From positions 1-64,000 of the forward strand of contig JAUCBJ010008896.1 of assembly GCA_032718475.1 (NCBI GenBank): 64,000 bases of DNA, read 5' to 3'. Of this stretch, positions 22,350 through 59,030 are shown piece by piece. Numbering within the stretch: position 1 is the first letter of the stretch; every line of letters begins with the position of its first letter. Origin of the DNA: Nemertoderma westbladi (taxonomy: Eukaryota > Animalia > Xenacoelomorpha). Under the pieces are notes generated by a model. That model had not been told where the DNA came from. It saw only the letters and a program-made list of their open reading frames with translations, and ran no database searches. A program made the translations under genes and the position numbers.

Positions 22350-22939
22350 TTAAGCTTTATGATTTAATATAAAATAAAATATCATTGTTCATTTTATTTG
22401 TTATTGAATTCATTATATAGATGTTATTGAAATACAAATAATATTTAATTCAATATTGTTAGAGAATTATATACTACGGTAATATTTATTTCAGGGCGCC
22501 ACCGGGCGTCTTCAGGGCGCCTCCGGCCGTTCCCGGGCGCCACCGGGCGTCCCCGGGTGCCTCCGGGCCCCTCAGGGCGCTCATGGGCACCTCAGGGCGT
22601 GTTTTATCAGGACCCCACGAGTGTGGTTTTTTGTGTAGTAAAACCAAGCAATTATATTATATAAACGTAAACGCACCTCTTTAAAACCTAACACCGATAA
22701 TAATAAACACATTATATAATGCAAACAATGAAAATATGTAGAAAACAATTTTAACATAATTATATTTATTTTAGGCGATTTACCGTGTCCAGTGACCTTG
22801 CCGCTTGTGAAAAAGAGACACATCCCACCGCAAATTTTGACAATATATTGAAAAGGCTTTATGACGAGTTTCCCATTTAGAATTCCTTTAGTCAGTACAT
22901 CGAATGAAATGTGACCACCGACCAACCTCAAACTTATAC

Positions 22940-25121
22940 TGTTACGGTATATGGCGCTGTATCCACAGTATTAGTCCATTATGCAGTATGCAGTATTAGT
23001 CCATTATGCAGTATGCAGTATTAGTCCGTTATACTGTACGTAATATTAGTCCGTTGTGCAGTATAATTATTTAGATAAGGTGCAGTGTGGTGACATTTAG
23101 GTAAGGAAGTTAAAACGCCCATATATTTTGCATCCATTCATTTTGTATAGTATGTAGCCCTACCTACGTAATTTTGTATTAGGATATATGTAGATAGTTC
23201 CAGGGTAGCGAGTTTACTCGGACCCTGGATTTTGTGCTTGCTGATATTAGTTTGATAGGGCTAGCATATAGGGACGCTGTCCTGGCCATTCAACAGCCAG
23301 AGACGTGATCCATTACCATATATGGTAATAATTTGAGGGCATAGGGCTACAATCCGGTCTCCTTATTGGATTAACTGCTTCCAGGTTGGTTTAATGCTAG
23401 CATGGACTGGAGAGCCAATGGGAGAGCGATTGAGTCACCTTATTGCATCACCCCATCCGGATCACCTATAAATTGGCGGTGTGCCGGTAGGGCCTTTTTT
23501 GTTGTTCATATGTTCATGCCTTATCACATGACACACCCCTGTTACAATTTACTTGCTGAGCTGTCTCTAATTTTGTATTAGGATATCGTATTTTCTGCAA
23601 TTTGCTAATTTTGATTAATTTCTTGGAATGATTTGCTAGTACGATTACTTTGCTTGTGTTTCTCAATAATTCCTTCGATTACTGCAAATTACAATCGAAC
23701 TATGATTTCTACCTTTGATTGATGGTTCTATGTGATTCTTTTCTGCGCAATAATCCCAAGGGATTCCTGAGACTGTCAGACTTTGTGATTTGCATGCGCC
23801 GCTACGGTAGCTATTAGCATCATGGAGGGCTAAGGTGCCAGTGGGCGGTGGGCGCATCGGGGGGTTGAGCGACTAGGAGAGAGCGGAGGATTCAAAGCGG
23901 GCAACGCTGGCCAGGGTCACCGTTGCGGGCGGGTATCTTGCACTGCGGCACGCAGACCGATCGCCGGTACAGTATCTAGGGGGCTGATGATCCAGGTTTT
24001 GTCTCTATTTAGTATTAGGGGGGCAGGAATTGGGTTAGTTAGGAATCCTAGATGTACCCGGGAGAGGCCTGCGCGTAGTACAACGTTGAGTGTGGAGTAC
24101 GAGTAGTGAATTGCACAATTGTAAACTGTGATTTCTAACGCTGATTGGTGTGTTATTGAAGTGTGCCTAAGATTACGAATGCTTAGATAGGCGCTCTTTT
24201 TTCCTTTGATTGATTTCTATTTCTTAGTTACAATAATTAGTTATTGATTAGGTCAAAGTAATACGGCAATTTAGGCTATTACTAGCGAAACCTGTTGCGT
24301 GATAAATTAGAATTACGTATTCTGGAACTCTTAGTAATTAGTACGCTGTTAAATATTTGTGACTGTAATTAATTAGTAAAAAATTAAGAATTAGTACGCA
24401 GCATAGCAGAGAGTAGCTAAGGTAATAATTAGTGTACTGTAAACTATTCACGCTGAGCGGTTATTTGCATTAGCGGGCAATCAGCTAGAACGCACTATTC
24501 GGTACGCACGATACGCTAGTAATTTTGCTGGCCTAAAGCCAGTCGCGGGCAGTTTTAGACTCGGAGTGGTATTATCCACGTAGAAACAGATACTGTACCA
24601 TTTTGATATTTTAAATATTCTCGCATTCACACATTACGTTAGGGAACCTCCAGTATTCGCGATTAGAAAGACGTAGGTAATAGCGTGCTTTAATAGTGAT
24701 AAAATTAGGCGTAAGAATACTCTGAGTGCAAGGCCTCTCGCACTCGTCTTAAGTAAGCTTAGGGAGCCAACTCGGGTTTATTGTTTTGGTTATTCCTGCG
24801 TGGCTCATAGATTCGAACAGTTAGCTCTCTATCGAGCAATCGGTAGAGAAAGGAACAAGCGATTTTGCAGGAGTTGTGTAAATTTAGTAAAATATATTAG
24901 CGGACGGCAGATTAGCGCCATCTAACGGTAAGTAGCGGTTTGTATTTAGCAACCCTTACAATTTAGTAATAGCACACTCCTGATCCCCTTTACTTAACAG
25001 TAGAGCAGTCTTTGTGTCTTATTGGTTAGACGAGAACTTATTAGGTTGGCAGAAGGATATTAACGGGTATTGGTCTGTTCAACAGTTCTGCTGTTAGTAT
25101 AGAGGTCGCGGTTGTTTATCA
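22940..25121 (+). repeat. 5' LTR (2182 bp)
   Basis: TGTTACGG...GTTTATCA, a direct repeat of 39432-41613. I found only four A/G differences by eye. Confidence 0.97.
23410..23475 (+). promoter_or_regulatory. Putative LTR promoter (CCAAT and TATA boxes)
   Basis: agccaatg at about 23412 and cctataaa at about 23465, repeated in the 3' LTR. Confidence 0.5.
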
Positions 25122-26313
25122 GTAATACGCGATTTGTTTGCTGTAGGCTGTAGCGTACAGTAAATAGTGTATTCTTAGGCTGATAGTAGTATCACAGTAT
25201 TAAGTAATAAGTTGGAGCACGTGATCGTCTGCTGTAGGCTATAGGCTAGCGTACAGTAAGACATTGAGTTTATTCTATTAGGTTGTAGGTTTAGATTACT
25301 GTATTCACTGGCTGCGTACAATAGTACAGTAGTACATTAGGCTGATTGTTGTTACTGCGTACGGTAGAAGGACATTTGTTTGCCGTACCACACACACAGT
25401 ATCATTAGGCTGTTAGGTTGGTGTACTGTTTTACTTACTGTACTGCATACAGTGGATGTACGGTAGTGCGTTTTGCTAATTGCGAATACAGCAGTTCCTT
25501 AGGCCTTAGGGCAAACAGTAATTAGTAAGTTTTTTGAAAATTTTAGCTAGGTTTGCGAGAATTCAGTTTTCGGTCAAAATTATTTTGTAAAATTCTAGAG
25601 TTTTGTACCGGTATGTTAGGTAACCGCTTAGTTATTTTATACCATCTGGAGATACATGGCAAGACGGGACTTCTGAGTTTGGGGTTCGTGTGGGTCTGCG
25701 GGTTCGGTTTGCAATCAGCGAAGGGCCTGAATCTTTGGACGCGGACGTGGAATCTCACAGCAAACAAGGTTAGTTGTTCTGTTGGCACCAGTGTGTTTGT
25801 GGAAGCAGTAAAAAATTACCGGTTGTTTAACTGCGAAGCTGAACTCAATTTATTAGTTAGGATATTTAGGTTTAGCCGGCCATGGTTTTTTGAATCGCTC
25901 AAGTTAGAGAGAGAGTTAGAGAGAGTCGCAACCCGAAGATGTAGCCACGCGCTAGTGGATACATATAATATTTGAAATTAAAATTACGTTGATTGGAGCT
26001 ATATATATAAAATTAGAAATATTCGGGTGGCAAGTTTATTTTGAATATTTTGTATTAGATTCAAAGTTATTTTGTGCTATACCGGTATTTAATACTATAT
26101 AGTAGCTATATAATAATATTTTTTGTTTAAATATTGTGTTAGTATTTGCTATAACTATATACCCCATTAAATTCACAATATTGCATTGCGAATTTATTTG
26201 ACATTTGGACCAACTGATTATTTGACAAATAATTTGACCGTATTTCGGTTAAATTACAATTATATCTCGAACTTTTGCGAGATTTTTGCCGGAAGGCAAA
26301 CATTATTTAGACT

Positions 26314-29300
26314 ATGAGTGTCTCAGACAAAGAGGCACTAGAGGACAGCTATGAGACGGCGGCTGGACCGCCGACTGACGATAGCGTAAATATTACTGTT
26401 GATGACAATGCCGACTATGACGACGCAGCGAGCGACGCTGACGTAAGTGAACAGGAGGACGAGACAGTGACTAGTGAGGAAGAACAGCAGCCTCAGGTAA
26501 TAGTATTAGGACCCCCTACCGCTACTGATAGGAAGGACTGTACGGCAGCCCGGACAGAGGTGAGTGATAGGGAGGGTAGTGTAGTAGAAGCGAGAGCCCG
26601 GAGCCCGGTTTCCAGACCTGTGGGTATGGTAAGTGCCGTGGTCCCGACGGCTGTTAGGAGTACCCGTAGTTCCCGAAATAATCCTTCAAGTCCACCGAGC
26701 GTAAGTCAGGTGAGCGAGAGAGAACTTGATATCGCGATAAAGAAGAAACTTCGCGCGCATGCCGGACATATAACTCGGACGGCGGACAAGGTAAGGAAGA
26801 TGTTAGCTGACCCAGCGAACATCGGGAGGGTAGAGTTAGTAGAGATTAGAAGAGGATATAACTCAGCGTTATTCAAGCAGACGGAGGAGCTTGCAGTCCT
26901 AGCGAAGAAGGCAGTAGAGTCTCAGTCGAGCGATGTAGCAACGAGGATTTACGACAGGGTTTTAGCAGCCTTGTTAGAGCACCGCGAGTTATCGGAGCGA
27001 TTCCGACGAGTTAGGACGGAGAACTGGCTGCTATGGGCATCACAAACGCAGGCGACTCAGGTGAGTGACGCAGAGTTAAGAGACTTAGTGGAGCGGGAAG
27101 AGATCCAAGATAAGGAAGAGCGCCGTTATCAGAGGGAAGTTACTAGCTGGCTGATGCAGAATGGAGTGGTGGTACCAGGCCAGGTGCTACCGACGACGGA
27201 GAACATTCAACAGAGGACGTTGACTCCACCCGACGACGCATCTAGAGACAGCGGCGATTCCCAGGTTAGTCACGCGCGAGGTAAGGTAATATGTGCTAGA
27301 TCCCTTGTTTCTCACAACTCGGCGGAGGAGAGAAGACGCCGACTAGACGAACAGCAGGCGGAAGTTTTGCGTGCACAGGAAGCACGGAAGGAAGCCGAGC
27401 GGGAACGGGAGCGCACACGTAAGTTGGACGCAGAGTTACGAGAGTTGGAAGAGATAAGTAAGCGCGAGCGAGCGGAACGCGAGCAAAGGGAACGTGAACT
27501 CCAAGCCGAGCGCGAGCGCGAGGAACTCGAATGCGAACAGAGAGAACGCGAACTCCAACTCGAATGCGAACGGGAAGCGAAGAAACGCGAACTCCAACTT
27601 GAATGCGAACGGGAAGCGAAGAAACGCGAACTCCAACTCGAACGCGAACAGGAAGCGAAGAAACGCGAACTCCAAGCCGAACGCGAGCGCAAGAAACTCG
27701 ATCGTGAACAGAAGGAGCGCGAGCTTCAACTCGAACGCGGACGCAAGGAACGCGAACTCGAGATCGAGAAAAGAAGACGCCCATTGTATGAAGAAAAGGC
27801 GCGAGTGGAAGAAGAGAGCGCAGCGAGACGAGCGAGGGAAGAAGAAGAGCGTAAACTGGCGCAGTTGGAAAGTGCGAGATTAAGTTTAGAGAGCGAAGAA
27901 CGGACTAGGAAGGCGAACGAAATCGCCGAGAAGGGGATGCGAATGCTCGAAGAATGTGGGGCGAGTGTGGGGACAGAGTTGCGAGAACTGTTCGCACTGC
28001 AGAAGGCCGAACAGGAAGCGAGAACTCCGACTATACGCGAGTCAACGACGACCAGAATTCCTATACCCGGTCCAGCTATTACGAGTACACGGATCGCTAA
28101 ACCGTTCTCTACATATCGCACGCCAGTTGGTATTAGTGCTTCACCCATCGCCCAGGATCTACATCATCGGAACGCCGCACCACTGTATACCGAACGTGAC
28201 AACGGAGAATTTAGAGAAGAAACTCCGACGGGCCGAGTATTTGGCGAACCGAACCCGCGGGTTTGGAATACGCGGACGGAGCGCCGACCCAGTTCGACGG
28301 AGAACTTCCGGGTTAAACCGGAAGAGGGATCATATGAGAGACAGTGGATTACTCAGATAGAGCCGACTATACAACAGAACCCTAGCCAGGAATTTATTAC
28401 GAGGGATGAGTTAAGTGCTAGTTTAGCGCAAGCTATATCGCCGCACATCCAACCTATAACGGACATGCTTAGCAACCTACGGTTAAAGGAAGCAGCCCAG
28501 GTAAGAAGTAATTCTAATCCTAGCAGGCCTGAGTTAGATAAAGTCCAGCCTAGTCAACGAGTACGCATATCGGAGGAGACTATACCACATAGACCTCAGG
28601 TAAGGACGCCTGTCCCGAATATCCATAATCCCAATTTCGAAAATTCGGCAGAAAGATTTATTGAGGAAGCTTGGGTCAGGGCCTCGGCGCGCAAACCATC
28701 GCGAGCGCTAAGGACTGACACTGAGTCAAGTGATGAAGAGGAAGACATGAGACGTCAGAAGTCCCGAAACTATAAGGAAAGAAGGACGGACGCGGAGCAG
28801 GTAAGTTGGAACCACCGGGAAAGGACCAGACTTAACAACCCTGCGGAACTAAACCATTTGTTAACCCGGAACGACGCAACCCTTAGGGACATAGGTAAGT
28901 TTGCTGCTAGGCAAGGACTGCCGACGCAGCAACCCCAGAAGTTTATGGGTAACCATAAACATTGGAGGACCTTCAAAACCTATGTCGACGAGCAGCTAAC
29001 CAACAGCACCTTTACTCCCAACGAAAAGTTCAACTATTTGCTTCAGATGCTCCATCGAGAACCTAGAGCCATTGCTGATAATTTCGTCGGTAATGAAAGA
29101 GCATTTGAGTTAGCGATGAAGACGCTTAGTGACATCTACGGGAATAAAACCAAGATGGCGCAGTCGATAGTAGAAGACTTGGGTAAGGGCGGAAGGATTA
29201 CAACTCCGTTAGAGCTGTTGAACTTAGCGAACGCTATTTCGAACGCATTGGACATCTTGAGGACGGTGAATCTACCTCATCATGGTGATCACGCCGAAGT

Positions 29301-32300
29301 TTTGAAAAGCGTAATAAGACGTTTAAACATGCGTTACAGACAGAAATGGCGCAAATTAGAGAATAAGTTGGAGGGCCAAGGTAAGGTGTTGACACTTCAG
29401 CATATTCATGACATGATAGCCACAGACGCAGTAGCAGAGATTAAATCAAACTTCTCAGAAGAGAATATGAGGGAGTCTAAACCTGTTACCGGTAAGTCTA
29501 TGGTAAGTTTTGACGATGACAGGACCACTGTGACATTTAACTCAGTAGACAGATATAATTCGAATACCCCAGCCTTTAGATCAGACTCGCGAGTATGGTC
29601 AGGTGAGCGGTTAGATAGACCTAGGTTAAAGCAACAGGAGTTGCCGGATGGATTTGTAGGTTGCCAATACTGTTTACTAAAGGAGGTAAGATCTGACGAC
29701 CATAAGTTAGATAGTTGCAGACAGTTCAAAGAATTAAATTCGGAACAGAGAAGAGTTCAAGTGCGGACGTTGGACACCTGTTGGGCATGTCTTGCGCCAG
29801 GTCATGTACGGCGGCAGTGCCCGAACAGCAAGGACGGATGCATGGAATGCGGCAGACTACATCACAAGTTGCTACATGCGGATTTCCACACCCCAACGGA
29901 CCGTTACTTACAGCGAAATCCTCAAAGGAAGGGGAGCAAAGAACCCGTATCGATAAGGAGGAATACGTACACTGGCATCCAGGACGATGGTTACCAACCA
30001 GGTTCGTCGGACGAGGATGGCGAGTCGAGCGCGAGAGAAGTGACCTGCCAAGGTTTCACCGCGGATAGTTCATCGACCAGCGCGCGGACGTATTTATCAT
30101 CGGCCACGTCGGAAATATTTAGCGTGATTCCGGTGAAACTCACTGGCGATAAGGGATCGAAGCGAATATATGTGATGTTGGACACTGCGTCCACATTATC
30201 TTATATCGACGAGGAAGTGGCGAGAGCCGTTTCTAGCTTCCAGGACGCCGAGGAGATCCAAATAGAGTTGAAGTCTATGCATGGGGTAGGAGACCTCAAG
30301 GGACACAGAATTTCGGTGGAACTAGATTCCCTACTTCCGAGAGACCAACACACTCGACAAGAACGGAAAGCTTTGCCATTGGACGGATTTAAGTGTCTAG
30401 CTATGAAGGGATTCGGCAGGCAGTTAGGTAAGGTGCCGCCGATGAGTCCCATAGCACAGGAGTATTTTGACAAGCTCAGGATACCCAGACACCAGGTAGG
30501 TTATAGGAATGTTTCTATGTTGATTGGTGCAGAACAGCTGATCGCACACCAGATATGGGAAACGAGACCAGCTGAGCCGCATGTCAATGGACCACATGCC
30601 CATAGGACTATACTAGGTTGGTATACACGAGTACCCATGTCTTATGAGTTTACAGGTGGCGACAAGCCAATGAATAGATACGACGAATTACAGCCTATAG
30701 CTGAACCACCGTTAGTAGAACCACCAGACATAGACGAGTTTAGGAGAACCTGTATTGACCACTATAGTGACTTTAGCGAGTCGGACGAGGAGTTGATTCC
30801 CGATAATGTTAGGTTGTCGGAACCACTTCATAACGACCGGACAGATAGTGAACCCGAGGACTACTGTTATCAGACCCGTGGGTCTGGTTCAGCGGCCCAC
30901 GCTACTTATCTGACTAACGTTTTGACTTATACAGACATAGTGGAGGGTCAAGTGGCTAAATATCGAGACCTAGACATTTTCCAATACAGTGAGGAGGAAT
31001 TACAGAAGGAATTGATACGCCAGGACCTCGAGACAGGAGCCAGAACCGTCGAATGGCTGGATAGGGACGCAATGGAACCCGGTGGATATGACCTAGCCAT
31101 GTCTACTGATGAGAAACGGTCGCTGGAGATGATGGAAGACACCATACGTCTGCTACCGACTGGACATTTTGAAGTTGGAATGTTGTGGCGTCGACAACCA
31201 CCTAAGTTGGAGAACAACTACAGCTTAGCCTTGAAAAGATTAAACGGAGTAAGGGCTCGGTTGTTGAAGAATCCGGACATTAGGGAGAAGTATTGCGCCC
31301 AGATCAACAACTATTTCGCCAAGGGATATGCTGGGAAGGTAGAGGACCCTGACTTAGTGACAGACCAGACTTATTACCTTCCACACCACTATGTGACTCA
31401 CCCTGACAAGCCAGACAAAGTCCGAGTAGTCAACGACTGCGCAGCAGTCTATAGAGGTATGTCCCTGAATTCAGAGTTGATGGATGGTCCCAACCTGAAT
31501 AACTATTTGATTGGAATACTGTTGCGTTTTAGACAGCGGCGATTCGCATTTACTTGTGACATCGAGGCGATGTTCCACCAGGTAAGAGCCTGTAAGGCAG
31601 ACCAGGATAGCCTTCGATTTCTCTGGTTTGAGAATGAAGACTTATCCGGCCCAGTGGTTACATACCAAATGTACGTTAGGATATTTGGCGCCCGCGATAG
31701 TCCGAACGGCACGCTGTTTGTTCTAAAGAAAACGGCAACAGCCCAGATTGGTAAGTATCCAGTAGAAGTAATCGAGTCTATATTGAGAAACTTCTATATG
31801 GACGACGGATTGGTGTCCAAGGACACAGCGGAACAAGCCATAGAAGTGGCTCACGGCCTGCAAGAGTGCTTGGCTACAGGGGGATTTCCTCTGACCAAGT
31901 TCACTACGAACTCGGAGGCCCTATTAGAGTCGTTCCCGGTAAAAGATTGCGGGAGCGGAGACATAGAATTGGGGGTAGAACCAATCCCCATGGCGCGAGT
32001 ACTGGGACTCGCTTGGAATCCGAACTCGGATAAGTTCCAGGTAAGAGTTAGATTTGAGCCCAGTAGCCCAGACAAAGTTTTGACAAAGAGAATTTGCTTA
32101 TCGACATTAAGTAGACTATTTGACCCGATGAACTTTATCAGTCCGGTTATATTACAGGCACGAGCGTGCATGAGGAAAATTTGGTTGTCCGACTTAGAGT
32201 GGGACGAACCAATATCTCCTATACATGCAAAGCAGTGGAGGGAGTGGGAAGCCGAGTTGCATCTGTTGAAAAATATAGATGTACCCCGTTCCTACTTTCC

Positions 32301-34791
32301 GAATCAGCTGGTATTTCCAACTGATTTAGAGCTACACCTGTTCAGTGACGCAAGTGACACCGGCTTTGGTATGGTAGCCTACCTTCGCCGAGAGGTAAGT
32401 CAGGACAAATTTGAGACGGCCTTTGTGACTTCTAGATCAAAGACAATGCCGGTCAAATATATGACTGTCCCTCGTGCAGAGTTACAGGCGGCTGTAGTTT
32501 CGGTCGAGGTAAGTAAGCAGATAACTGAGGAATTAGATACGACATTGACCTTATTCTATTGGACGGACGCATCCTTGGTGTTAGTATACATTGCGGCCGA
32601 CAATATTGCACTAAAGACATTTGTGGCCAATAGACGCGCTCAGATCGTTGACTTTTCGACGAAGGAACAATGGAGACATTGTCCGGGAGTGTTGAACCCG
32701 GCCGACATAACTTCGAGAGGTGCAATGCCGGCGGAATTCTGTCAGGAAGAGTCTCAGGAGTTTTGGTTGCATGGACCTGATTTTCTAACAAGGACACAGG
32801 AACATTGGCCAGAGCGACTAAAGATAGTGACCAATCCGATGCCTGAAGATGCAGAAGTCAAAGTGGAGAAAGTCTCTAAGTTGAAGTCTAAAGCCAAACT
32901 TAAGTCATTGAAGCGGCCTGAAGAGTCATTGGAGCGGCCTGAAGAGTCATTGGAGCGGCCTGAAGAGTTATTGGAGCGGCCCGGAGACCTGTCAGACCAA
33001 CAGACTTACGTGACTACTAGGTCAGGAAGGGTAAGTTACGACGTAAAACCACCCTTACAGACTAGACGAGAGTCACAGTTGGTAAGTGACGGACAGAAAA
33101 TGACCGACACAATGGATCCTTTGGTTTCCAAACCTGCGGGTTTGGATTCGAAACTTCCATTGGTTAACGGACAACCGTCGCTGGCATTAGAGTCATGCAG
33201 TATTTATGACAAATTACTAAATTCGTCTGCCTCTTGGCTGACAATTTGTAAAAGAACTGCGTGGTTAAGCCGATACGTTTCGTACCTTTGTTTAAAACAT
33301 TCGGAACATTTAGGAGAACGAACGAGCACCAATAGTGAGCGAATTCGGAAATTGAAACAACCTCTGACGGAGGATGAGATTGATCAAGCGGAATTAAAGC
33401 ATTTGAAACATTATCAAATGTGTGCCTTCCCAAAAGAATTCCATCTATTATCGGCTCAACGACCAGTTCTCTATAAACCCCTTAGAAAATGGAGTCCATT
33501 AATCCATAAGGGTTTAATTTGTCATAGATCGAGAATCCAGACTGTCGACATAAACTCACAGTTTCGGTTCCCAGTGATAATCCCTAGTCACCCAATAGAA
33601 TTGCAAAGAGCGATTTTATGGGATATACACAAGAGGTTGCATCACGCGGGAAGGTTACACTGTCTGTCGGCAGCGAGACAGCGATTCATTCTATTGCAGC
33701 CAAGCAGGGCAGTCGGCACTATGTATGACGCCTGTCTGGTTTGCAAGAGAGTGAACGCCAGAGTATTGGAACAGGAGATGGCTGAACTCCCGGAAGCGAG
33801 AGTGCAGGCATATGACCCACCCTTTACGAACACAGGGGTGGACTGTTTTGGTCCGATTGAAGCAAAGAGTGGACGGCTGACCCACAAGCGATGGGGTCTG
33901 CTATTGACATGTATGGCGAGTAGAGCCATACACATCGAGCGTGTGGCAGACATGTCGACTAAATCTCTGCTCCTGGCCTTAAAGAGATTTATGGCCAGGA
34001 GAGGACTAGTAAAGGCGTTCTACTCTGACAAGGGTACAAACTTTGTCGGAGGGAATAGCGAGTTGAACGCGGCTCATAAAGCAGCACAGAATAAGGAAAT
34101 TTCTGCAGCACTTTTGCCGCAAAGAGTTGAGTGGAGATTCAATACTCCAGAAAGTCCTTGGAGAGGAGGAAGTTGGGAGCGTTTAGTTCGCTCTGTAAAG
34201 CAGGCCATTGCTAAGACGTTGCCTGTAAATAAACAACTTACCGACGAAGAATTGGTTACAGCTTTCATTGAAATCGAGCATACACTAAACTCGAGGCCGA
34301 TAGCCATGTTGCCAGACGGTGTTGCATTAACGCCGAATCATTTGCTAATGCAGAGTCCAGCATTTCTTGTGCCGGCATCAGAACCCATTAGTGCCGACCT
34401 ATATAGTCGTAAAAGCTGGAAAGTAACACAGTTTGTGGCGTACACATTCTGGGAATATTGGCGGAAATACTATCTTCCCACCATATCCACCAGAACAAAG
34501 TGGTACAAAACGGTTCGGAGTCTCCAAAGGGGAGATTACGTATTGATAACCGAGCCGATTATCAAGAGAAAGTATTGGGAGACGGGAGTGATCTTGCACA
34601 CACACCCAGACGTGCAAAACATAGTGCGCACAGTCACTGTGAAAATTAGGTGCAAGTGTCCGCACCCAAAAAAGTGTAAAACTAATGGTTTACACACCTT
34701 GGACCGACCGGTCCAAGATATTGTGTTATTAGAGGAGACACGTATCGAGACGGGAGATTATAATTTGTCTCCTGCCTCAAAACTGAATTAG
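26314..34791 (+). CDS. BEL/Pao gag-pol polyprotein (2825 aa)
   Basis: Gag core KFMGNHKHWRTF..EKFNYL, triple Cys/His cluster ending CMECGRLHHKLLH, protease LDTAS, RT (YYLPHH, DIEAMFHQV, FYMDD), Pao-type RNase H LHLFSDAS..VPRAELQAA..NPAD..SRG, and integrase VDCFGP, SDKGTNF, GGSWERLVRSVK. Confidence 0.97.
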   Translation: MSVSDKEALEDSYETAAGPPTDDSVNITVDDNADYDDAASDADVSEQEDETVTSEEEQQPQVIVLGPPTATDRKDCTAARTEVSDREGSVVEARARSPVSRPVGMVSAVVPTAVRSTRSSRNNPSSPPSVSQVSERELDIAIKKKLRAHAGHITRTADKVRKMLADPANIGRVELVEIRRGYNSALFKQTEELAVLAKKAVESQSSDVATRIYDRVLAALLEHRELSERFRRVRTENWLLWASQTQATQVSDAELRDLVEREEIQDKEERRYQREVTSWLMQNGVVVPGQVLPTTENIQQRTLTPPDDASRDSGDSQVSHARGKVICARSLVSHNSAEERRRRLDEQQAEVLRAQEARKEAERERERTRKLDAELRELEEISKRERAEREQRERELQAEREREELECEQRERELQLECEREAKKRELQLECEREAKKRELQLEREQEAKKRELQAERERKKLDREQKERELQLERGRKERELEIEKRRRPLYEEKARVEEESAARRAREEEERKLAQLESARLSLESEERTRKANEIAEKGMRMLEECGASVGTELRELFALQKAEQEARTPTIRESTTTRIPIPGPAITSTRIAKPFSTYRTPVGISASPIAQDLHHRNAAPLYTERDNGEFREETPTGRVFGEPNPRVWNTRTERRPSSTENFRVKPEEGSYERQWITQIEPTIQQNPSQEFITRDELSASLAQAISPHIQPITDMLSNLRLKEAAQVRSNSNPSRPELDKVQPSQRVRISEETIPHRPQVRTPVPNIHNPNFENSAERFIEEAWVRASARKPSRALRTDTESSDEEEDMRRQKSRNYKERRTDAEQVSWNHRERTRLNNPAELNHLLTRNDATLRDIGKFAARQGLPTQQPQKFMGNHKHWRTFKTYVDEQLTNSTFTPNEKFNYLLQMLHREPRAIADNFVGNERAFELAMKTLSDIYGNKTKMAQSIVEDLGKGGRITTPLELLNLANAISNALDILRTVNLPHHGDHAEVLKSVIRRLNMRYRQKWRKLENKLEGQGKVLTLQHIHDMIATDAVAEIKSNFSEENMRESKPVTGKSMVSFDDDRTTVTFNSVDRYNSNTPAFRSDSRVWSGERLDRPRLKQQELPDGFVGCQYCLLKEVRSDDHKLDSCRQFKELNSEQRRVQVRTLDTCWACLAPGHVRRQCPNSKDGCMECGRLHHKLLHADFHTPTDRYLQRNPQRKGSKEPVSIRRNTYTGIQDDGYQPGSSDEDGESSAREVTCQGFTADSSSTSARTYLSSATSEIFSVIPVKLTGDKGSKRIYVMLDTASTLSYIDEEVARAVSSFQDAEEIQIELKSMHGVGDLKGHRISVELDSLLPRDQHTRQERKALPLDGFKCLAMKGFGRQLGKVPPMSPIAQEYFDKLRIPRHQVGYRNVSMLIGAEQLIAHQIWETRPAEPHVNGPHAHRTILGWYTRVPMSYEFTGGDKPMNRYDELQPIAEPPLVEPPDIDEFRRTCIDHYSDFSESDEELIPDNVRLSEPLHNDRTDSEPEDYCYQTRGSGSAAHATYLTNVLTYTDIVEGQVAKYRDLDIFQYSEEELQKELIRQDLETGARTVEWLDRDAMEPGGYDLAMSTDEKRSLEMMEDTIRLLPTGHFEVGMLWRRQPPKLENNYSLALKRLNGVRARLLKNPDIREKYCAQINNYFAKGYAGKVEDPDLVTDQTYYLPHHYVTHPDKPDKVRVVNDCAAVYRGMSLNSELMDGPNLNNYLIGILLRFRQRRFAFTCDIEAMFHQVRACKADQDSLRFLWFENEDLSGPVVTYQMYVRIFGARDSPNGTLFVLKKTATAQIGKYPVEVIESILRNFYMDDGLVSKDTAEQAIEVAHGLQECLATGGFPLTKFTTNSEALLESFPVKDCGSGDIELGVEPIPMARVLGLAWNPNSDKFQVRVRFEPSSPDKVLTKRICLSTLSRLFDPMNFISPVILQARACMRKIWLSDLEWDEPISPIHAKQWREWEAELHLLKNIDVPRSYFPNQLVFPTDLELHLFSDASDTGFGMVAYLRREVSQDKFETAFVTSRSKTMPVKYMTVPRAELQAAVVSVEVSKQITEELDTTLTLFYWTDASLVLVYIAADNIALKTFVANRRAQIVDFSTKEQWRHCPGVLNPADITSRGAMPAEFCQEESQEFWLHGPDFLTRTQEHWPERLKIVTNPMPEDAEVKVEKVSKLKSKAKLKSLKRPEESLERPEESLERPEELLERPGDLSDQQTYVTTRSGRVSYDVKPPLQTRRESQLVSDGQKMTDTMDPLVSKPAGLDSKLPLVNGQPSLALESCSIYDKLLNSSASWLTICKRTAWLSRYVSYLCLKHSEHLGERTSTNSERIRKLKQPLTEDEIDQAELKHLKHYQMCAFPKEFHLLSAQRPVLYKPLRKWSPLIHKGLICHRSRIQTVDINSQFRFPVIIPSHPIELQRAILWDIHKRLHHAGRLHCLSAARQRFILLQPSRAVGTMYDACLVCKRVNARVLEQEMAELPEARVQAYDPPFTNTGVDCFGPIEAKSGRLTHKRWGLLLTCMASRAIHIERVADMSTKSLLLALKRFMARRGLVKAFYSDKGTNFVGGNSELNAAHKAAQNKEISAALLPQRVEWRFNTPESPWRGGSWERLVRSVKQAIAKTLPVNKQLTDEELVTAFIEIEHTLNSRPIAMLPDGVALTPNHLLMQSPAFLVPASEPISADLYSRKSWKVTQFVAYTFWEYWRKYYLPTISTRTKWYKTVRSLQRGDYVLITEPIIKRKYWETGVILHTHPDVQNIVRTVTVKIRCKCPHPKKCKTNGLHTLDRPVQDIVLLEETRIETGDYNLSPASKLN

Positions 34792-35560
34792 TGTTGGACG
34801 CAACTCACTTCGTATGCATTCCTCGTATGCAAATACAAGGAAATGCATAGGAGCGGGGTTGTGGTGATTTGCGTTGAGTTTTGTCTGGTGGGTATCAAAA
34901 CAAAATTTTATTTTCAAAAATTTTGGAAAATTTAAAATTTTAAAAATTAGAAGTGAACCCAAGACAATTCCAGACGCTGTGTATAGACGCGTTTTAGAAT
35001 TCGTCTATAGATAAACAGTAATTTGAAAAGTCGTGAAGCCTGGAAAATAGCATTTAGAAACCATGGTGACGGCTATATTACGTAGGAGTATAAATTGAGT
35101 TTAGCAACTTCCACAGATTGGTGCCAACAGTACAACTAAGGTGCTAAAGGTTAGTAGCACCAGAGGCGTACATGGACCCCACTCAGTAGTTTGCAGGATG
35201 TGTGATGTTCGATTATCAAACCTGTGGGTTTGGTATAGTCGAGTATTGTGGCTATGGTCCTTTCTAACTACTGTAGTTTAGTACGAGTAATGGGAGTAGT
35301 TTGGGCATCAAAAAGTGAGTTGGTCACGGCCAGTTTATCTCCAAAGTTTTTGCGCTATGCATGGGAATAGGTTAGAGGATAGTTAGTTAGGAAGAGACGG
35401 GATCTAGAGAGTCGAACCTGAACTGCTGGAAGGCGGGGGGGGGGGGGGAGGGGTTCGGGAGGTCTGTCCTTCGGCGACATCTAACTGATTTACCCACAGT
35501 GTAGTTGGTTACGTAACGGCACTTATTGGGATATATATATATGTATATACGCGTAACATA

Positions 35561-38500
35561 ATGGAGAGGGATATTAGAGCGCAACCGCGCAGAGGATTTA
35601 CTGCCAGAGAGGAGGCGGAGCTACCATTCGCGCGACCAGGATGTAAAGACTCTAACGTTTACTACCATGGGCGGTCCGTGATGGAGCTGAACGGGAAGTA
35701 CAAACCAAGTTATGATAAAGAATTACGGAGAGAAAGAATGAGAGCGTTGGGGGACCGGATGGAAGTCTTGCGGAGAGAGTATCGCACGCGGTATCCCTAC
35801 GACTTTGCTTTGGACGTGTGCGACATTAGCGCAGATCCGGACGAGGAAATCGCACGACTATACCATATGAATATGTATTTACGACATGAGGAGCCTCTAC
35901 CTGCAGTCCGAGACCAGTTCGACGGAATGCACCTGTATCGGAGGACTCGAGGCGAGGATCAGGAGACGCCGAAAGTCTTCAGCGTATACAAGCTCTTCTA
36001 CAAGTGTGGTGAATGCATGAATAAACAGGACGTGGCAATTCCCGACCGATTAGACGAGCAACATCCGGAACCGATATTAACGCGATGTCCAGCTCACCAA
36101 TTCCTTAGATACAACGAGGGAGGTTACCCGATGAGCAACCCGATGATCAGTATCGACTTCAGCGGAAAGCGACCTCCGAGACCCATTACGCCGACCGTTA
36201 CGACATTAGATCCGTATACGGAGATTAAACCCTGTTCGACACCCAGTTTGATAGAGACGGCAGCGGCCATTTCGCTGTACCGAGCCTACAAGGATCTAGA
36301 GGCGCGGCGCGAAGCGGCGCGGGACTCGGGTACCAAACCCGTGGGTTTGGAGCTCTCGAGTCCCTGGACTGCGTTTACTTCACCTCACCGAGTGAGAAGC
36401 CTCACGCCTGAGCATCAGGACGACATAGACGCGTTGCGGCAGGAGGAGCGAGCGGCGAAGGCGAAAGAGTTATTTGAGAACAGGATAGCGGAGTATAATA
36501 AGACCGCGGATAGACATCAAGAGGAGACGAGGAGAGTGACCGGATTTGTTCCACAGGTCGTATCTCAACCCGGACCGGTGTATTATTCCGACGGCACCGA
36601 ACCTGCGATATTAGTAGATCATCCGGAGTCGCGAGAAGCGATACGATTCTTGCCGATGGTAAGAATGGCGGACCATTGGAACGTTGACTGTCTACGGGAA
36701 GTTTTATGCGCGAAGTTCTTGCGTGATGTCCCAATGCAGATCACAGATTACGACACTTTGGACAAGATTGGAGCTCCGGGGAAGGAGAGTAAGTTATTCG
36801 GATGGTTGGATAAGTACATCAAGGTATGGGTCGCGGTGGCTACATTCCCAGATGACGAGGAAGTAGACCAGACGTGGCTGAGGGGGAAGGATCCTAGGGA
36901 ACAGATTTTGGAGGTATGCAGGCGAGGAGGTATGCACGGAGCGGAGCGTATCGACGCCAGGATGTTACCAAAGAAGGTTAGAGAGGCTATTCTCAACCAA
37001 GATTACGTCAAGGTGGGATCGGGAGTCCAGAGCGATTTGGAGAGCGACTTCAACGCCATGACTGATCTGGAAGATAGATTGCCGAGACCGTTTGTCGACA
37101 CCAAGCTATTGTTGCTATGGGCACAGGATATTGGAATTTATAGGGAGTATCCCAACTCTGCCAAGACTGGTATGGGCTTTATAGCACACTTGTTGTATAA
37201 TTGGGACTTTAAGTTAAAGACGCAGAAGAAGTACGAGGAGGCGTATGGCGAATACAACACGCCACCGGGAGCGGAGTTCAAATCCCACTTCAAGCGGCAA
37301 GCGTTAGTGTATTGGAACATTTGCGCGCCACCCCGTGCGTCGCTACAATATTATTTGGTGCTTGAGTCGAACACGGTGACTTGTTTATTAGCGGATATCG
37401 TTGCGCGAGTTTTGAAGCGTCATCCATTGGTATTCGGAGGAGATCAATACGTTCGCTCGAAAGGGGGAATCCAATCCGACGTGATGAAGCGTTTCTTAAC
37501 CCCGTTCTTCAACCAATCGTTAGAGAATACGTCGATGGTGAGGAGAGGATTAGCGATATTCGAAGGAGTATATCGACAGAACATCGGAGATTTGGGAGAC
37601 CGACCGTCGATGGAATATCCGACGCCAGAAGCTTTGGAGAAGTGGTTCGGGAATCAAACCCGCGGGTTTGGTACTCCCTTCCACTCGGAGGCTGATAGAC
37701 CTGTTAAGGAGGGCTGGCCGGAAACGTTAGTAGAGGTGTTCGGAGTAGATCTTCCGGTGGAGAAGACATATCCGAAACGAACGCGGGAGGAAATATTGGA
37801 GATAGAGGACAAGGGCGAGGATGTTTACTTTGTTCCGGATCGACAACCGTTGACCGGAGAGGACGACATCGTATTAGACATTGGGAAGGAAGGAAGTGCG
37901 AAACCGATTGGAGACCTCATATACGAGAGGGCCTGGTTTGCACAAGCGCGCAGGTGCAAATTGTGCGGCAGCACAAGGCACAATCTAAAGTCGTGCGACG
38001 CGGTAATAGAGGCGGCGCATAAGGTCTGTCGTTGGTGCAATGAGACCGACCATTCGTTTCACACGTGCACCGTCTTCATTTCTCAATGTGGATATTGTGG
38101 AGTAAAAGGACACCGTAGCGCGAGATGTCAGCTGCGAGATGATTCCTTTCAAAACCATAGCGCTAACCTACTTCGGGAGATGTTAGATAAGTGGGAGAGT
38201 GTGGCGGATTACCATATTCAAGCGCAGATGCGTTGGTTACCATTTAAAGCGGGATATGGGTTTTGGGCAGTAGACCCATCGCATGTTGCGTACGAGCCAT
38301 ATCTACAATCGCTACCACAATATCAGGAGCTCATCCTAACTGCTCAAGACCTTCCACAGAACACTGGAGTTATCGTAGTCCGAGAATACTTCAGACAATT
38401 GAACATGGACAATAAGTACACATGGAACTTCGTTGCTATTTGCGATCGCATCACGAAGGGTGTATTTACGGAGACTAGAAAAGTGGTACGCGCGCGAGGT

Positions 38501-38995
38501 GATTGGAGGATGGCGGCTATACAATACCGCAACGAATTCTTGTTGACTCATGTGCCAGTGGGTTCATTGACCGCCGAGAGGATACAGGAACAAAGGATCG
38601 CAGCGACCACAGCGACGACCGCTGGAGCTCAAGGCTCGCGGAAAGAACCAGGAGGAGGGGTCCAAGACAAGCGTCAAGTCAAGGACGACCACTACCACTC
38701 CATTATAGAAGCTCAACGGTTGCAGCGCAAGGCGCAGGGGGCGTCTGAGAAAGCGCGTGTGCAACTGCAGAAGGAAGAGTTGGCGGAAGCGACCACGGGA
38801 GCGCGACAATTGGGACGAGGCCGAGGGAGAAGTTCGAGCCGAGAATCTATCGGGGCTCAGGGAACGTCGTCGTCGGTTCCGGGGAGTGACGCCTCACGGA
38901 CGCCGTCAACGGAGTCGACTAGAGGTAGATTAGTGTATCTGGGAAGGGGACGAAAGAGAGGAGCGAGCCCAAAGAACCCAGGAGCGGGTCGATAA
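35561..38995 (+). CDS. Retrotransposon ORF2 (1144 aa): DEDDy 3'-5' exonuclease-like domain plus three CCHC zinc knuckles
   Basis: Intact ORF inside the LTRs. LPKKVREAILNQDYVKVGSGVQSDL, FVDT, GMGFIAHLL and YWN..PP....QYYLVLES resemble the WRN/EXD/MUT-7 exonuclease pattern. CX2CX4HX4C occurs three times at about 37955-38128, followed by an RG/S-rich tail. No signal peptide or TM segment, so not env. Confidence 0.8.
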   Translation: MERDIRAQPRRGFTAREEAELPFARPGCKDSNVYYHGRSVMELNGKYKPSYDKELRRERMRALGDRMEVLRREYRTRYPYDFALDVCDISADPDEEIARLYHMNMYLRHEEPLPAVRDQFDGMHLYRRTRGEDQETPKVFSVYKLFYKCGECMNKQDVAIPDRLDEQHPEPILTRCPAHQFLRYNEGGYPMSNPMISIDFSGKRPPRPITPTVTTLDPYTEIKPCSTPSLIETAAAISLYRAYKDLEARREAARDSGTKPVGLELSSPWTAFTSPHRVRSLTPEHQDDIDALRQEERAAKAKELFENRIAEYNKTADRHQEETRRVTGFVPQVVSQPGPVYYSDGTEPAILVDHPESREAIRFLPMVRMADHWNVDCLREVLCAKFLRDVPMQITDYDTLDKIGAPGKESKLFGWLDKYIKVWVAVATFPDDEEVDQTWLRGKDPREQILEVCRRGGMHGAERIDARMLPKKVREAILNQDYVKVGSGVQSDLESDFNAMTDLEDRLPRPFVDTKLLLLWAQDIGIYREYPNSAKTGMGFIAHLLYNWDFKLKTQKKYEEAYGEYNTPPGAEFKSHFKRQALVYWNICAPPRASLQYYLVLESNTVTCLLADIVARVLKRHPLVFGGDQYVRSKGGIQSDVMKRFLTPFFNQSLENTSMVRRGLAIFEGVYRQNIGDLGDRPSMEYPTPEALEKWFGNQTRGFGTPFHSEADRPVKEGWPETLVEVFGVDLPVEKTYPKRTREEILEIEDKGEDVYFVPDRQPLTGEDDIVLDIGKEGSAKPIGDLIYERAWFAQARRCKLCGSTRHNLKSCDAVIEAAHKVCRWCNETDHSFHTCTVFISQCGYCGVKGHRSARCQLRDDSFQNHSANLLREMLDKWESVADYHIQAQMRWLPFKAGYGFWAVDPSHVAYEPYLQSLPQYQELILTAQDLPQNTGVIVVREYFRQLNMDNKYTWNFVAICDRITKGVFTETRKVVRARGDWRMAAIQYRNEFLLTHVPVGSLTAERIQEQRIAATTATTAGAQGSRKEPGGGVQDKRQVKDDHYHSIIEAQRLQRKAQGASEKARVQLQKEELAEATTGARQLGRGRGRSSSRESIGAQGTSSSVPGSDASRTPSTESTRGRLVYLGRGRKRGASPKNPGAGR

Positions 38996-39431
38996 TACAT
39001 TATGGCACAGGGCGACAGACTCTAGATATATACATCATCGTCGCTCTGATGTATATTGTAGCATTTGAAAATTTTCGACTAGACTCGTATACACTAGTTG
39101 AGTTATTTGAATTTATATTATGAAAGAGGCTAAGGAAGTGATTGGGGAGACAAACCTGCGGGTTTGGCTTACTCCTTTCACTTGCCCTAGCAAAATTTTT
39201 ATATTTGATTTTGTATGTAGTAATCATTATGTAGTAAGAATGAACGAGAAACAATATTTTGTAAATTTAATTTGTATGTAATTCATTATGCAATATCTAT
39301 GGCAATATTTGTAAATAGTAGAATTATTATGTTATTTAGATTGGTTGGAAGAAATTTATTTTGTTTTGTATACATCACCTTATACTCTTCTACAATTGGA
39401 GGGAAACATTATATGATTTCCCTTGGAGCGG

Positions 39432-41613
39432 TGTTACGGTATATGGCGCTGTATCCACAGTATTAGTCCATTATGCAGTATGCAGTATTAGTCCATTATG
39501 CAGTATGCAGTATTAGTCCATTATACTGTACGTAATATTAGTCCGTTGTGCAGTATAATTATTTAGATAAGGTGCAGTGTGGTGACATTTAGGTAAGGAA
39601 GTTAAAACGCCCATATATTTTGCATCCATTCATTTTGTATAGTATGTAGCCCTACCTACGTAATTTTGTATTAGGATATATGTAGATAGTTCCAGGGTAG
39701 CGAGTTTACTCGGACCCTGGATTTTGTGCTTGCTGATATTAGTTTGATAGGGCTAGCATATAGGGACGCTGTCCTGGCCATTCAGCAGCCAGAGACGTGA
39801 TCCATTACCATATATGGTAATAATTTGAGGGCATAGGGCTACAATCCGGTCTCCTTATTGGATTAACTGCTTCCAGGTTGGTTTAATGCTAGCATGGACT
39901 GGAGAGCCAATGGGAGAGCGATTGAGTCACCTTATTGCATCACCCCATCCGGATCACCTATAAATTGGCGGTGTGCCGGTAGGGCCTTTTTTGTTGTTCA
40001 TATGTTCATGCCTTATCACATGACACACCCCTGTTACAATTTACTTGCTGAGCTGTCTCTAATTTTGTATTAGGATATCGTATTTTCTGCAATTTGCTAA
40101 TTTTGATTAATTTCTTGGAATGATTTGCTAGTACGATTACTTTGCTTGTGTTTCTCAATAATTCCTTCGATTACTGCAAATTACAATCGAACTATGATTT
40201 CTACCTTTGATTGATGGTTCTATGTGATTCTTTTCTGCGCAATAATCCCAAGGGATTCCTGAGACTGTCAGACTTTGTGATTTGCATGCGCCGCTACGGT
40301 AGCTATTAGCATCATGGAGGGCTAAGGTGCCAGTGGGCGGTGGGCGCATCGGGGGGTTGAGCGACTAGGAGAGAGCGGAGGATTCAAAGCGGGCAACGCT
40401 GGCCAGGGTCACCGTTGCGGGCGGGTATCTTGCACTGCGGCACGCAGACCGATCGCCGGTACAGTATCTAGGGGGCTGATGATCCAGGTTTTGTCTCTAT
40501 TTAGTATTAGGGGGGCAGGAATTGGGTTAGTTAGGAATCCTAGATGTACCCGGGAGAGGCCTGCGCGTAGTACAACGTTGAGTGTGGAGTACGAGTAGTG
40601 AATTGCACAATTGTAAACTGTGATTTCTAACGCTGATTGGTGTGTTATTGAAGTGTGCCTAAGATTACGAATGCTTAGATAGGCGCTCTTTTTTCCTTTG
40701 ATTGATTTCTATTTCTTAGTTACAATAATTAGTTATTGATTAGGTCAAAGTAATACGGCAATTTAGGCTATTACTAGCGAAACCTGTTGCGTGATAAATT
40801 AGAATTACGTATTCTGGAACTCTTAGTAATTAGTACGCTGTTAAATATTTGTGACTGTAATTAATTAGTAAAAAATTAAGAATTAGTACGCAGCATAGCG
40901 GAGAGTAGCTAAGGTAATAATTAGTGTACTGTAAACTATTCACGCTGAGCGGTTATTTGCATTAGCGGGCAATCAGCTAGAACGCACTATTCGGTACGCA
41001 CGATACGCTAGTAATTTTGCTGGCCTAAAGCCAGTCGCGGGCAGTTTTAGACTCGGAGTGGTATTATCCACGTAGAAACAGATACTGTACCATTTTGATA
41101 TTTTAAATATTCTCGCATTCACACATTACGTTAGGGAACCTCCAGTATTCGCGATTAGAAAGACGTAGGTAATAGCGTGCTTTAATAGTGATAAAATTAG
41201 GCGTAAGAATACTCTGAGTGCAAGGCCTCTCGCACTCGTCTTAAGTAAGCTTAGGGAGCCGACTCGGGTTTATTGTTTTGGTTATTCCTGCGTGGCTCAT
41301 AGATTCGAACAGTTAGCTCTCTATCGAGCAATCGGTAGAGAAAGGAACAAGCGATTTTGCAGGAGTTGTGTAAATTTAGTAAAATATATTAGCGGACGGC
41401 AGATTAGCGCCATCTAACGGTAAGTAGCGGTTTGTATTTAGCAACCCTTACAATTTAGTAATAGCACACTCCTGATCCCCTTTACTTAACAGTAGAGCAG
41501 TCTTTGTGTCTTATTGGTTAGACGAGAACTTATTAGGTTGGCAGAAGGATATTAACGGGTATTGGTCTGTTCAACAGTTCTGCTGTTAGTATAGAGGTCG
41601 CGGTTGTTTATCA
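39432..41613 (+). repeat. 3' LTR (2182 bp)
   Basis: Direct repeat of 22940-25121, followed by TSD tatac. Confidence 0.97.
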
Positions 41614-41659
41614 TATACTGTATTACTGTTGACAACACTAAAAGACATTACAGCCCACT

Positions 41660-44600: not shown

Positions 44601-45250
44601 AGATATGGGAAATGACTACGGAGTACCACACATCAAAATCCACGCTATTTTCAATATAATTATCTGTACTGGTCGAAGTAAAATGGAATTCATCTTGTAA
44701 TGTATAATTAGCATCATCGCGTTCCATTATCACCGAAGCAATCACCCACACTTTATAAAACATATCAATAAAAGTCGACACAGTCAAGTTAAAAGCGCGT
44801 GAAGCATATATCCCCACATAATTTAAATAATTCGGCACATCTGGATACATCTCATTAGATGGCACATTATGGGTATATTCCTGAACGCGTGATTTGTGAC
44901 ATGTTTTTGAGAGATGAAAACCTTCATTGGGTGTATCTGAGCTGTTTGTAATGCTTACAGGAAAACCAACGTTGAGATCCGGTTGAAATGTCGGTTCTGA
45001 TTGTTTTTGATTATGTTTGCATTTGCGAGAATTGTAATGGTTTCGATGGCAATTGTGTTCGATATATGAATTGAAATTTTCGAAATCATCGGAGCATGTT
45101 GGGCAGGATAGCGTATAACTGTGGTAGGTATAATTCGGGCGAGACGACCCACAACATCTATTACTGTGAAATATTGCTATTCTTTAGGAAGTAGTTCGGC
45201 AATTACAATTATCGCAAACATACCCATCGAAATGTGTGCGTAAATGCTGT
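41660..45250 (-). pseudogene. Polinton/adintovirus protein-primed family B DNA polymerase, fragmented
   Basis: Consecutive fragments contain GSGW, CFKW, VYGDFE, an EndoVII-like HHNHYNGAFIGAACISCN, LHNFFAYDSHLI, FIDSF, YLHLDMLLLADIFENFR, NNALFGKSMENIR, GDTDSFF and a C-terminal EDKR...LPYGHY. Multiple frameshifts, including 14-bp and 45-bp tandem duplications. Confidence 0.9.
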
Positions 45251-58359: not shown

Positions 58360-59030
58360 ACGGACAATTCGGTCAAAAATATTTAGTGTTTTGGGACCGA
58401 ATTGTCTGGGACCGTATTGCCAGGGACCGAATTGTACAGGACCGTATTGTGGGGACCGAATTGCCCTACATCCATACCGTACAAGCGTAGCAATAATTTC
58501 GTTTTAGTTTTTTAAGGGGAACTAACTTTACAACATAATTTATGGGTCTCATAATACCATGGCAGCATGAGATCTTTATTGCTTGGTCTTTATTTGTTTA
58601 TGGAAACCAATATCCATACCTTATGTAACAGCTGGCAGCTTCTTAGTAGGAATATAGATGTTGGTCTATCAGACCCTTTGCTACATAATCTCATAAAACA
58701 GACGAATTATATACTAATATAAACGAATCTTTCTAATAACATTGAGCTACTTTGATCCAAAATGCAGCAGGCAGCAATGCATATACTGTATGTTTCGGTA
58801 TTGATTGGATATTATATAACATATAGGAGTCGTGTTAAATTCATTCAAAGAAAGATTGTATTCTACATTGTTTATTGTAATTCTATAATAATGTTAAAGG
58901 CAACTATTATTCTAGTTTTAGCTCTGGTAGCAGTTTTACCTTTGGAGTGCCTTGGAGAGAACATTGGGGTCTCAAACAAAATGGTTGAAAGAGGCAATGT
59001 TAGTTTGTTTTTAAGGCAGATCTACCCTCA
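58360..59030 (+). repeat. Segmental duplicate of about 8470-9190 (foldback right end, promoter and exon 1)
   Basis: Near-identical sequence, including the element terminus cctacatcc plus ataccgtac, the upstream region, the exon and the start of the minisatellite. Confidence 0.93.
58891..58998 (+). CDS. Exon 1 (signal peptide) of a second paralogous gene, continuing beyond the window
   Basis: Same 36 codons as 9047-9154 with one D>V change. GTTAGT donor at 58999. Confidence 0.62.

Follow-up and report, generated by a model that had tools for sequence, protein, structure and literature searches.

We describe here ORF2, an accessory gene found between the integrase and the 3' long terminal repeat (LTR) of a BEL/Pao-type retrotransposon in Nemertoderma westbladi (Xenacoelomorpha). 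The DNA analysed, called the window below, comprises positions 1 to 64,000 of contig JAUCBJ010008896.1 (assembly GCA_032718475.1); the element spans 18,674 bp of it (22940-41613), and ORF2, of 1144 aa, lies at 35561..38995. Unless stated otherwise, coordinates are those of the window and features lie on its + strand. By sequence comparison, ORF2 defines an unnamed protein family carried by a BEL/Pao lineage, and its product joins a predicted nuclease domain of the DnaQ/DEDDy type to a zinc domain with a conserved helical part. We propose that this protein is a cis-acting RNA-binding factor for the element's own RNA, with 3' to 5' trimming as an optional activity, a reading whose chances we judge to be about even.

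The intact ORF had been noticed in a preliminary description of this DNA, and the coordinates, the Pfam matches and the LTRs agree with it. ORF2 is uninterrupted, starts 769 nt past the gag-pol stop codon and ends 436 nt ahead of the 3' LTR, which is the usual position of an envelope gene. The motifs listed in that description are all present: three CX2CX4HX4C knuckles beginning at aa 799, 823 and 843, an N-terminal CxxC...CxxH (aa 149-179, 36005..36097, with the CxxC at aa 149 and the CxxH at aa 176) and an RG-rich tail; the N-terminus is charged on inspection of the sequence. Its view that the gene is not an env also held, since ORF2 has no transmembrane helix (maximum 19-residue hydropathy 1.34) and matched no env or gag family in domain, sequence and structure searches. 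Taken alone, ORF2 gave no significant match in Pfam, NCBIfam or PDB sequences.

The DEDDy-like domain proposed in the preliminary description (aa ~365-630, 36653..37450) is placed in the DnaQ superfamily by profile and fold searches, and we predict that it adopts the DnaQ/DEDDy (RNase H-like) fold. Family profiles match the first 104-117 residues of EXD2 (E 7.6e-4 and 5e-5), the sole sequence match for this domain, and when a profile of the 14-row alignment A7 is compared with EXD2 all three Exo motifs line up. In an AlphaFold model of aa 350-660 the order of strands and helices matches that of DnaQ domains, the first ten Foldseek matches are EXD2, Nibbler and NrnC (E 0.04-0.1), and the best 50 matches in a VIA structure comparison all belong to the DnaQ superfamily (Z 6.0-8.5; root-mean-square deviation of 4.2 over 162 residues for the match at Z 8.5). 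An Atlas cluster assignment to PF01612 (0.90 on 41% of the cluster) is taken as a lead. Pfam found no HRDC domain, as in Rrp6/EXOSC10, in ORF2 or its relatives; downstream of the nuclease domain there is an acidic linker and then the zinc domain.

As for the active site, alignment and profile place ExoII at D492 (37034..37036) and ExoIII at Y598-x3-E602 (37352..37366), so that the ExoIII Asp is indeed a Glu, as had been remarked; the same Glu recurs in two relatives, L016 and P0003. The statement that no clear ExoI motif exists needs amending. A canonical DxE, present at ExoI in 18 relatives, is not there, but D396-Y-D398 (36746..36754) is quite likely the ExoI motif with its Glu swapped for Asp. 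The first predicted strand carries this triplet, which comes five residues past a proline, as in EXD2 and several relatives. Three alignments put it at ExoI, one puts ExoI elsewhere and local profile methods leave it unaligned, which makes us moderately sure of the placement. Since an ExoI-like motif is probably present in this form, all four acidic positions may be kept, and the window protein probably retains four carboxylates, D-D-D-E, with two complementary swaps. The earlier suggestion of an altered or pseudo-nuclease is partly supported: the window protein probably has its acids with two swaps, whereas a whole clade of relatives has lost them all and another pair is without the domain.

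Sibling copies hold the nuclease domain of ORF2 under strong purifying selection. When four runs were compared over 36620-37450, 39 of the best 40 of 55 variant rows were synonymous, whereas 21-35% would be expected, depending on the assumed transition share (binomial p < 1e-16), and no indels occurred among the variant rows listed. ORF2 is therefore not decaying, in agreement with the preliminary description. That description had also named in advance three findings that would speak against it, and we obtained none of them: a DnaQ fold is predicted, the gene shows neither loss nor neutral decay, and no env or gag match was seen.

The three knuckles belong to a larger domain (aa 799-~925, 37955..38335), defined by alignment, profile and model, in which a conserved helical part lies C-terminal to them. 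The 36 aligned rows share 17 invariant columns, 10 of which are Cys or His. Knuckles 1 and 2 carry insertions in many relatives, and this is therefore one domain and no gag-like repeat. The domain was modelled with fair confidence (pLDDT 73); among 48,161 chains the best fold match reached Z 2.7, Foldseek returned only knuckle-level matches, and the profile of the domain had no match in the PDB at E 10. A missing structural match is no proof of a new fold. The likeness to Air1/2 that had been pointed out survives as weak Air2 rows in profile searches (E 0.56-8.8), the knuckles belonging to a domain of their own. In one relative, L073 (P0002), a degenerate nuclease part is followed by two tandem copies of the zinc-helix domain.

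How widespread is this gene? A phmmer search of 1.84 billion representatives recovered 7 proteins with 26-32% identity (E 1e-9 to 3e-4), which share with ORF2 the nuclease-like part and the knuckle region, or remains of them. A search with a degenerate motif taken from the helical part yielded 100 metagenome loci, 20 of them of 665 nt or less; 65 of the 100 match a family profile, forming 42 DNA clusters. BEL/Pao-like reverse transcriptase (RT) or integrase is held by 38 of these 65 members, including 36 of the 42 loci that are 4 kb or longer, and by 0 of the 35 motif loci that are not members. These enzymes show 24-44% identity with those of the window in aligned pieces, mostly 28-34%, and Peptidase_A17 and DUF5641 were present in all eight relatives' pol ORFs scanned with Pfam. 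Leave-one-out profiles score the window protein at 49.8 bits for the nuclease domain and 46.1 bits for the zinc domain, while aa 1-345 and 950-1144 have no counterpart in the relatives found. In quick trees, from which P0002, L027 and L041 were excluded on the nuclease side as partial, RT/RNase H (24 rows) and nuclease (35 rows) share their main clades (SH-aLRT 95-100), and the nuclease gene is in this way shown to have been inherited together with pol. In the nuclease tree, unlike the pol tree, the dead group lacks support as a single clade, and the window sequence is a long branch in both. Word-indexed homologue searches gave no relative; one of them failed to find even known members of the family, and no weight is therefore given to these blanks. 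A search of viral and metagenome contigs gave no related locus, its sole viral motif match not being a member.

The relatives form a series of nuclease states. In an alignment of 38 of the 40 sequences given, four acids occupy the DEDD columns in 17 rows (the window and 16 relatives) and three in 2 rows; 12 full-length rows lack any catalytic acid, and L011, L037 and L061 retain one or two. In L032 and L075 the zinc domain follows a BEL/Pao-like pol with no detectable nuclease. The ORFs with a dead nuclease are mostly intact and well conserved, and catalysis is, to judge from these alignments, dispensable in part of the family.

Two probable expression routes accompany these states. At 13 of 28 pol-ORF2 junctions, all of the dead clade (L006, L011, L014, L037, L038, L042, L043, L044, L047, L054, L065, L066 and L078), ORF2 lies in frame behind a single TGA-C pol stop, which in 6 of the 13 has the context TGA CAA TTA. 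A stem-loop follows the TGA-C by ~9 nt, with two-sided change in all seven consensus pairs (11 sequences), single folds of -16 to -38 kcal/mol and a common YCGGA bulge; readthrough signals described in the literature include CAR-YYA, UGA-C and stem-loops on the 3' side (PMC2194720, PMC8310308). Similarly, in the soybean element SIRE1 a 3' ORF lies past pol behind one in-frame stop with a CAR-YYA-type context (PMC2194720), although that ORF is envelope-like, and the window element has its 769-nt spacer instead. In 10 complete-site loci (L053, L057, L068, L033, L034, L071, L080, L062, L074 and L005), a segment of 57-71 nt with GT-AG or GC-AG ends, picked by eye, lies in the linker between nuclease and zinc domains. 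Modulo 3, the length of this segment matches the frame offset in each of the six split loci, and the segment is exactly absent from the close relatives L016 and L049; for these reasons the complete-site clade probably uses a spliced message. Programmed -1 frameshifting between the two domains was considered and rejected, since four of the six split loci have no slippery site and an intron fits all six. The ORF2 of the window has neither a readthrough junction nor a linker intron. As a separate observation, the 3' untranslated regions of L005, L016, L034, L068, L071 and L074 carry a GTGGGT...CCCCAC-type hairpin shortly upstream of the polypurine tract, and dead-clade elements share a different motif in this region.

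We hypothesize a role in RNA binding on the element's own ribonucleoprotein because the domain is conserved after catalytic loss and apparently fused to Gag-Pol; the readthrough-type fusion in relatives more readily suggests a function on the RNA or particle of the element itself. In the window element the protein would be made from a spliced subgenomic RNA, for which a candidate branch point and acceptor (CTAAC...CAG, 35481..35499) lies 61 nt upstream of the ORF2 ATG, and a candidate donor (ACG/GTAAGT, 24925..24933), one of two GTRAGT sites before gag, lies in the 5' LTR. In the dead-nuclease relatives, UGA readthrough would deliver ORF2 into the particle as a C-terminal extension of Gag-Pol. 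By analogy with TbRND and Egalitarian, we propose that the zinc domain may grip guanines in loops or single strands and that the nuclease fold may hold an RNA end or stem. A six-codon upstream ORF (35536-35563), whose TAA overlaps the ORF2 ATG (TAATG), is a possible stop-restart arrangement.

Several cellular proteins offer precedents for such a combination. TbRND (PDB 7C42/7C45, PMC7797062) likewise consists of a DEDDy exonuclease followed by tandem CCHC fingers, which supply its RNA binding (PMC7797062); it compares with the window model at Z 6.6, and the best Atlas look-alike cluster of the relative P0003 has its architecture (0.86, a lead only). TbRND is, however, a cellular mitochondrial enzyme with four extended fingers and no equivalent of the helical part, and its profile match to the ORF2 family is limited to the knuckles. 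EXD2, Nibbler/MUT-7, NrnC/diDNase and WRN agree with ORF2 in fold and motif order (Z 7-8.5), but at 8-16% identity and with tied scores, and ORF2 is without their partner domains; as to the closest host relative among EXD1, EXD2 and Nibbler, there is a weak EXD2 match, and fold scores are tied. Egalitarian, Exd1 and Exuperantia (Z 6.4-6.9) combine the nuclease fold with an RNA-binding module, catalysis being dispensable or lost, although they are host proteins without zinc knuckles. In these three the DEDD fold is described as serving as an RNA adaptor; Egalitarian carries retrotransposon RNA via stem-loops, and its DEDDy residues are dispensable for stem-loop binding, including that of the I factor (bioRxiv 10.1101/2025.08.03.668247).

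The element RNA itself offers candidate ligands. Its internal region contains, between 26614 and 39167, seven perfect C(YGYG)G hairpins and a weak one, against 0.03 in shuffles; the LTRs and the rest of the window have none. The weak hairpin lies at 26614..26629 and the others at 28251..28266 (a G-U variant), 30872..30887 (a compensatory pair), 33130..33145, 35218..35233 (in the pol-ORF2 spacer), 36335..36350 and 37656..37671 (both within ORF2) and 39152..39167 (in the 3' untranslated region). They are spaced 1.1-2.6 kb apart, fall in each of the three reading phases as well as outside coding sequence, and vary among themselves by G-U and compensatory changes and in their lower stems, with two-sided change in 6 of 12 consensus pairs. 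Since the nucleocapsid knuckle of Rous sarcoma virus binds a UGCG tetraloop (PMC8833184), the knuckles of Gag or of ORF2 could read these hairpins, a candidate packaging or transport signal. More speculatively, the seven or eight hairpins would be ORF2 binding sites used for transport, protection or packaging of genomic RNA. In its fullest form, which we advance only tentatively, the proposal would be that a deep BEL/Pao lineage has made an RNA adaptor, comparable to Rev or Egalitarian, out of a DEDDy nuclease fold and an architecturally new zinc-helix domain. This adaptor would read hairpins spaced along the genomic RNA, would be produced by splicing in some clades and as a Gag-Pol fusion by stop-codon readthrough in others, and would have passed within one family from enzyme to pseudo-enzyme to nuclease-less form.

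A number of points weigh against an RNA-binding factor of this kind. With regard to the fold, the narrower A7 profile reaches EXD2 only at E 0.94, the model of aa 350-660, built from a 7-row alignment, is of low confidence (pLDDT 48, pTM 0.52), and Foldseek gave no match of the nuclease model at E 0.001 or better. Four acids are kept by 16 relatives across deep divergence, which argues, on alignment evidence, that catalysis matters in those lineages. Neither the window element nor the dead-clade loci L061 and L063 have a readthrough junction. The loci were retrieved with a zinc-helix motif, so presence of the zinc domain is built in, and a few record prefixes account for most of them, which do not sample animal diversity independently. 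Finally, 24 distant relatives show no enrichment of the C(YGYG)G hairpin, each having 0 or 1 copy, and in the window the hairpins might be targets of the Gag knuckles or palindromes at the DNA level.

The window protein might instead be foremost an active 3' to 5' exonuclease, aimed by its zinc domain and trimming the 3' ends of element RNA, primer or cDNA during reverse transcription; we regard this as doubtful. The four acids in DEDDy positions in 16 relatives fit it, as do the D-D-D-E of the window with its complementary swaps and an ExoIII Glu that recurs elsewhere, the strong selection on the nuclease domain and the TbRND-like architecture. Against these stand the 12 full-length relatives without an acidic site, the two without the domain, and the insecure ExoI of the window. 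The primer-binding position of the window element (25122..25131) lacks the initial TGG and is not the usual tRNA site, a further point in favour of this reading, but complete-site and dead relatives alike have a tRNA-type TGGCGCC primer site, and primer trimming was for this reason rejected as the role of the family. Binding in cis and trimming are not exclusive, and the window protein may still cut. A trans-acting role against host silencing, in which the protein would trim or sequester PIWI-interacting or small interfering RNAs or would distract the partners of EXD1 or Nibbler as a decoy, seems to us decidedly unlikely. Nibbler and Exd1 are among the nearest folds, the element's contig depth exceeds that of its flank by orders of magnitude in two studies, a separate spliced message would suit a trans-acting factor, and a link to silencing was raised for the rotifer elements discussed below (PMC5408684); the fold scores, however, are tied with those of many DnaQ proteins that have no part in silencing, a Gag-Pol readthrough fusion would yield low, particle-tied amounts, and the variants of the window are conserved, unlike the rapid change common in host-conflict genes.

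Readthrough would also put ORF2 directly C-terminal to the integrase in 13 loci, where targeting domains sit in other LTR elements. ORF2 could then be a module linked to the integrase that serves in nuclear import or in the choice of target sites, its ligand being cDNA or chromatin and not RNA; CCHC knuckles can bind DNA, and the hairpins are palindromes in DNA as well. This is improbable, given a separate ORF in the window element and in the complete-site clade and no chromatin-reader motif in domain searches of ORF2 and its relatives. That ORF2 is a mere passenger, whether a host gene of recent capture, a nested element or an unrecognised env or gag, is scarcely credible and already largely refuted: it could draw on the want of a close homologue in the word-indexed searches, weightless as those blanks are, and on the unmatched ends of the protein (aa 1-345 and 950-1144), but it faces purifying selection, the recurrence of this gene behind pol sequences of 28-34% identity, agreeing trees, and the lack of a transmembrane helix and of any env or gag family match.

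Extra ORFs of the DEDDy type are already known from bdelloid rotifers, so that what appears new here is the BEL/Pao carrier and the unnamed protein family. The elements Juno and Vesta and the Terminons carry a DEDDy ORF3 (PMC5408684, PMC6431247), cited again in PMC6338049, and the Terminons are Penelope-like (PMC5408684). Like ORF2, the rotifer ORF3 is a DEDDy extra ORF in env position with no transmembrane helix. It differs in having the motif DEED and no clear departure from neutrality, and 'CCHC' occurs 0 times in the main text of the report (PMC5408684); as described, ORF2 is set apart from it by its BEL/Pao carrier, zinc-helix domain, strong selection, and dead and nuclease-less clades. 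The carriers are not Juno, Vesta or Athena, the window element and the 8 of 8 relatives scanned being BEL/Pao. Juno and Vesta we take to be Gypsy-type. In openly accessible full-text literature, PMC8556966 included, we found no report of a DEDDy extra ORF in BEL/Pao. ORF2 is an old, selected, non-env accessory gene in a group whose survey text mentions only an occasional env as an extra (PMC3118150), and its family supplies the purifying selection that is absent from the rotifer report. The family runs from complete through dead to missing nucleases, a natural series linked to two probable routes of expression, and so makes it testable why retroelements of separate descent retain DEDDy genes, whether to catalyse, to handle RNA or to defend themselves against silencing; the zinc-helix domain is a target for structure determination and the dispersed hairpins are a concrete ligand candidate.

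The carrier is assigned to BEL/Pao because its gag-pol ORF (26314..34791, 2825 aa) contains DUF1759, Peptidase_A17 (E 4e-39), Integrase_H2C2 and DUF5641, and this single gag-pol domain set fits that group. So do the TG...CA termini of the two LTRs (22940..25121 and 39432..41613), which are 2182 bp each and 99.8% identical (4 mismatches), and the 5-bp target-site duplication TATAC on both flanks (22935..22939 and 41614..41618, unstranded), within the 4-6 bp criterion. Surveyed BEL/Pao elements measure 4.2-10 kb with LTRs of 0.2-1.2 kb, env being their sole and rare extra gene (PMC3118150); at 18.7 kb the present element is unusually large by comparison. It is young and multi-copy. The stretch occurs in six public runs from 4 studies, one of them possibly the window's own source, and summed contig depth in runs X1 and X3 rises from ~50-70 on the left flank to 10^4-10^5 over the element, a depth that is no copy count and indicates many copies without an exact number. 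Depth over ORF2 is about half of that over pol in the same two runs; as depth gives no copy number, we conclude nothing from it. In run X6 one contig fuses both flanks without the element at 22936/41621, with a short side of 28 letters, which suggests that the insertion is polymorphic.

An exact 10-base complement of the primer site was found within the LTR (24072-24231), interrupted by a segment with GT...AG ends, of which the acceptor is good and the donor weak; with a chance rate of 153 in 3000 shuffles, this split complement is only suggestive. A scan of the element with Rfam gave zero matches. Beyond the element, broken ORFs on the - strand (42296-44850), one of which gave their only Pfam match, to Endonuclease_7 (E 0.004), resemble remains of a Polinton-type DNA polymerase B. 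Arrays of one C-rich 36-bp satellite occupy 9178-12300 and 59022-63995, with 87 and 138 copies, respectively.

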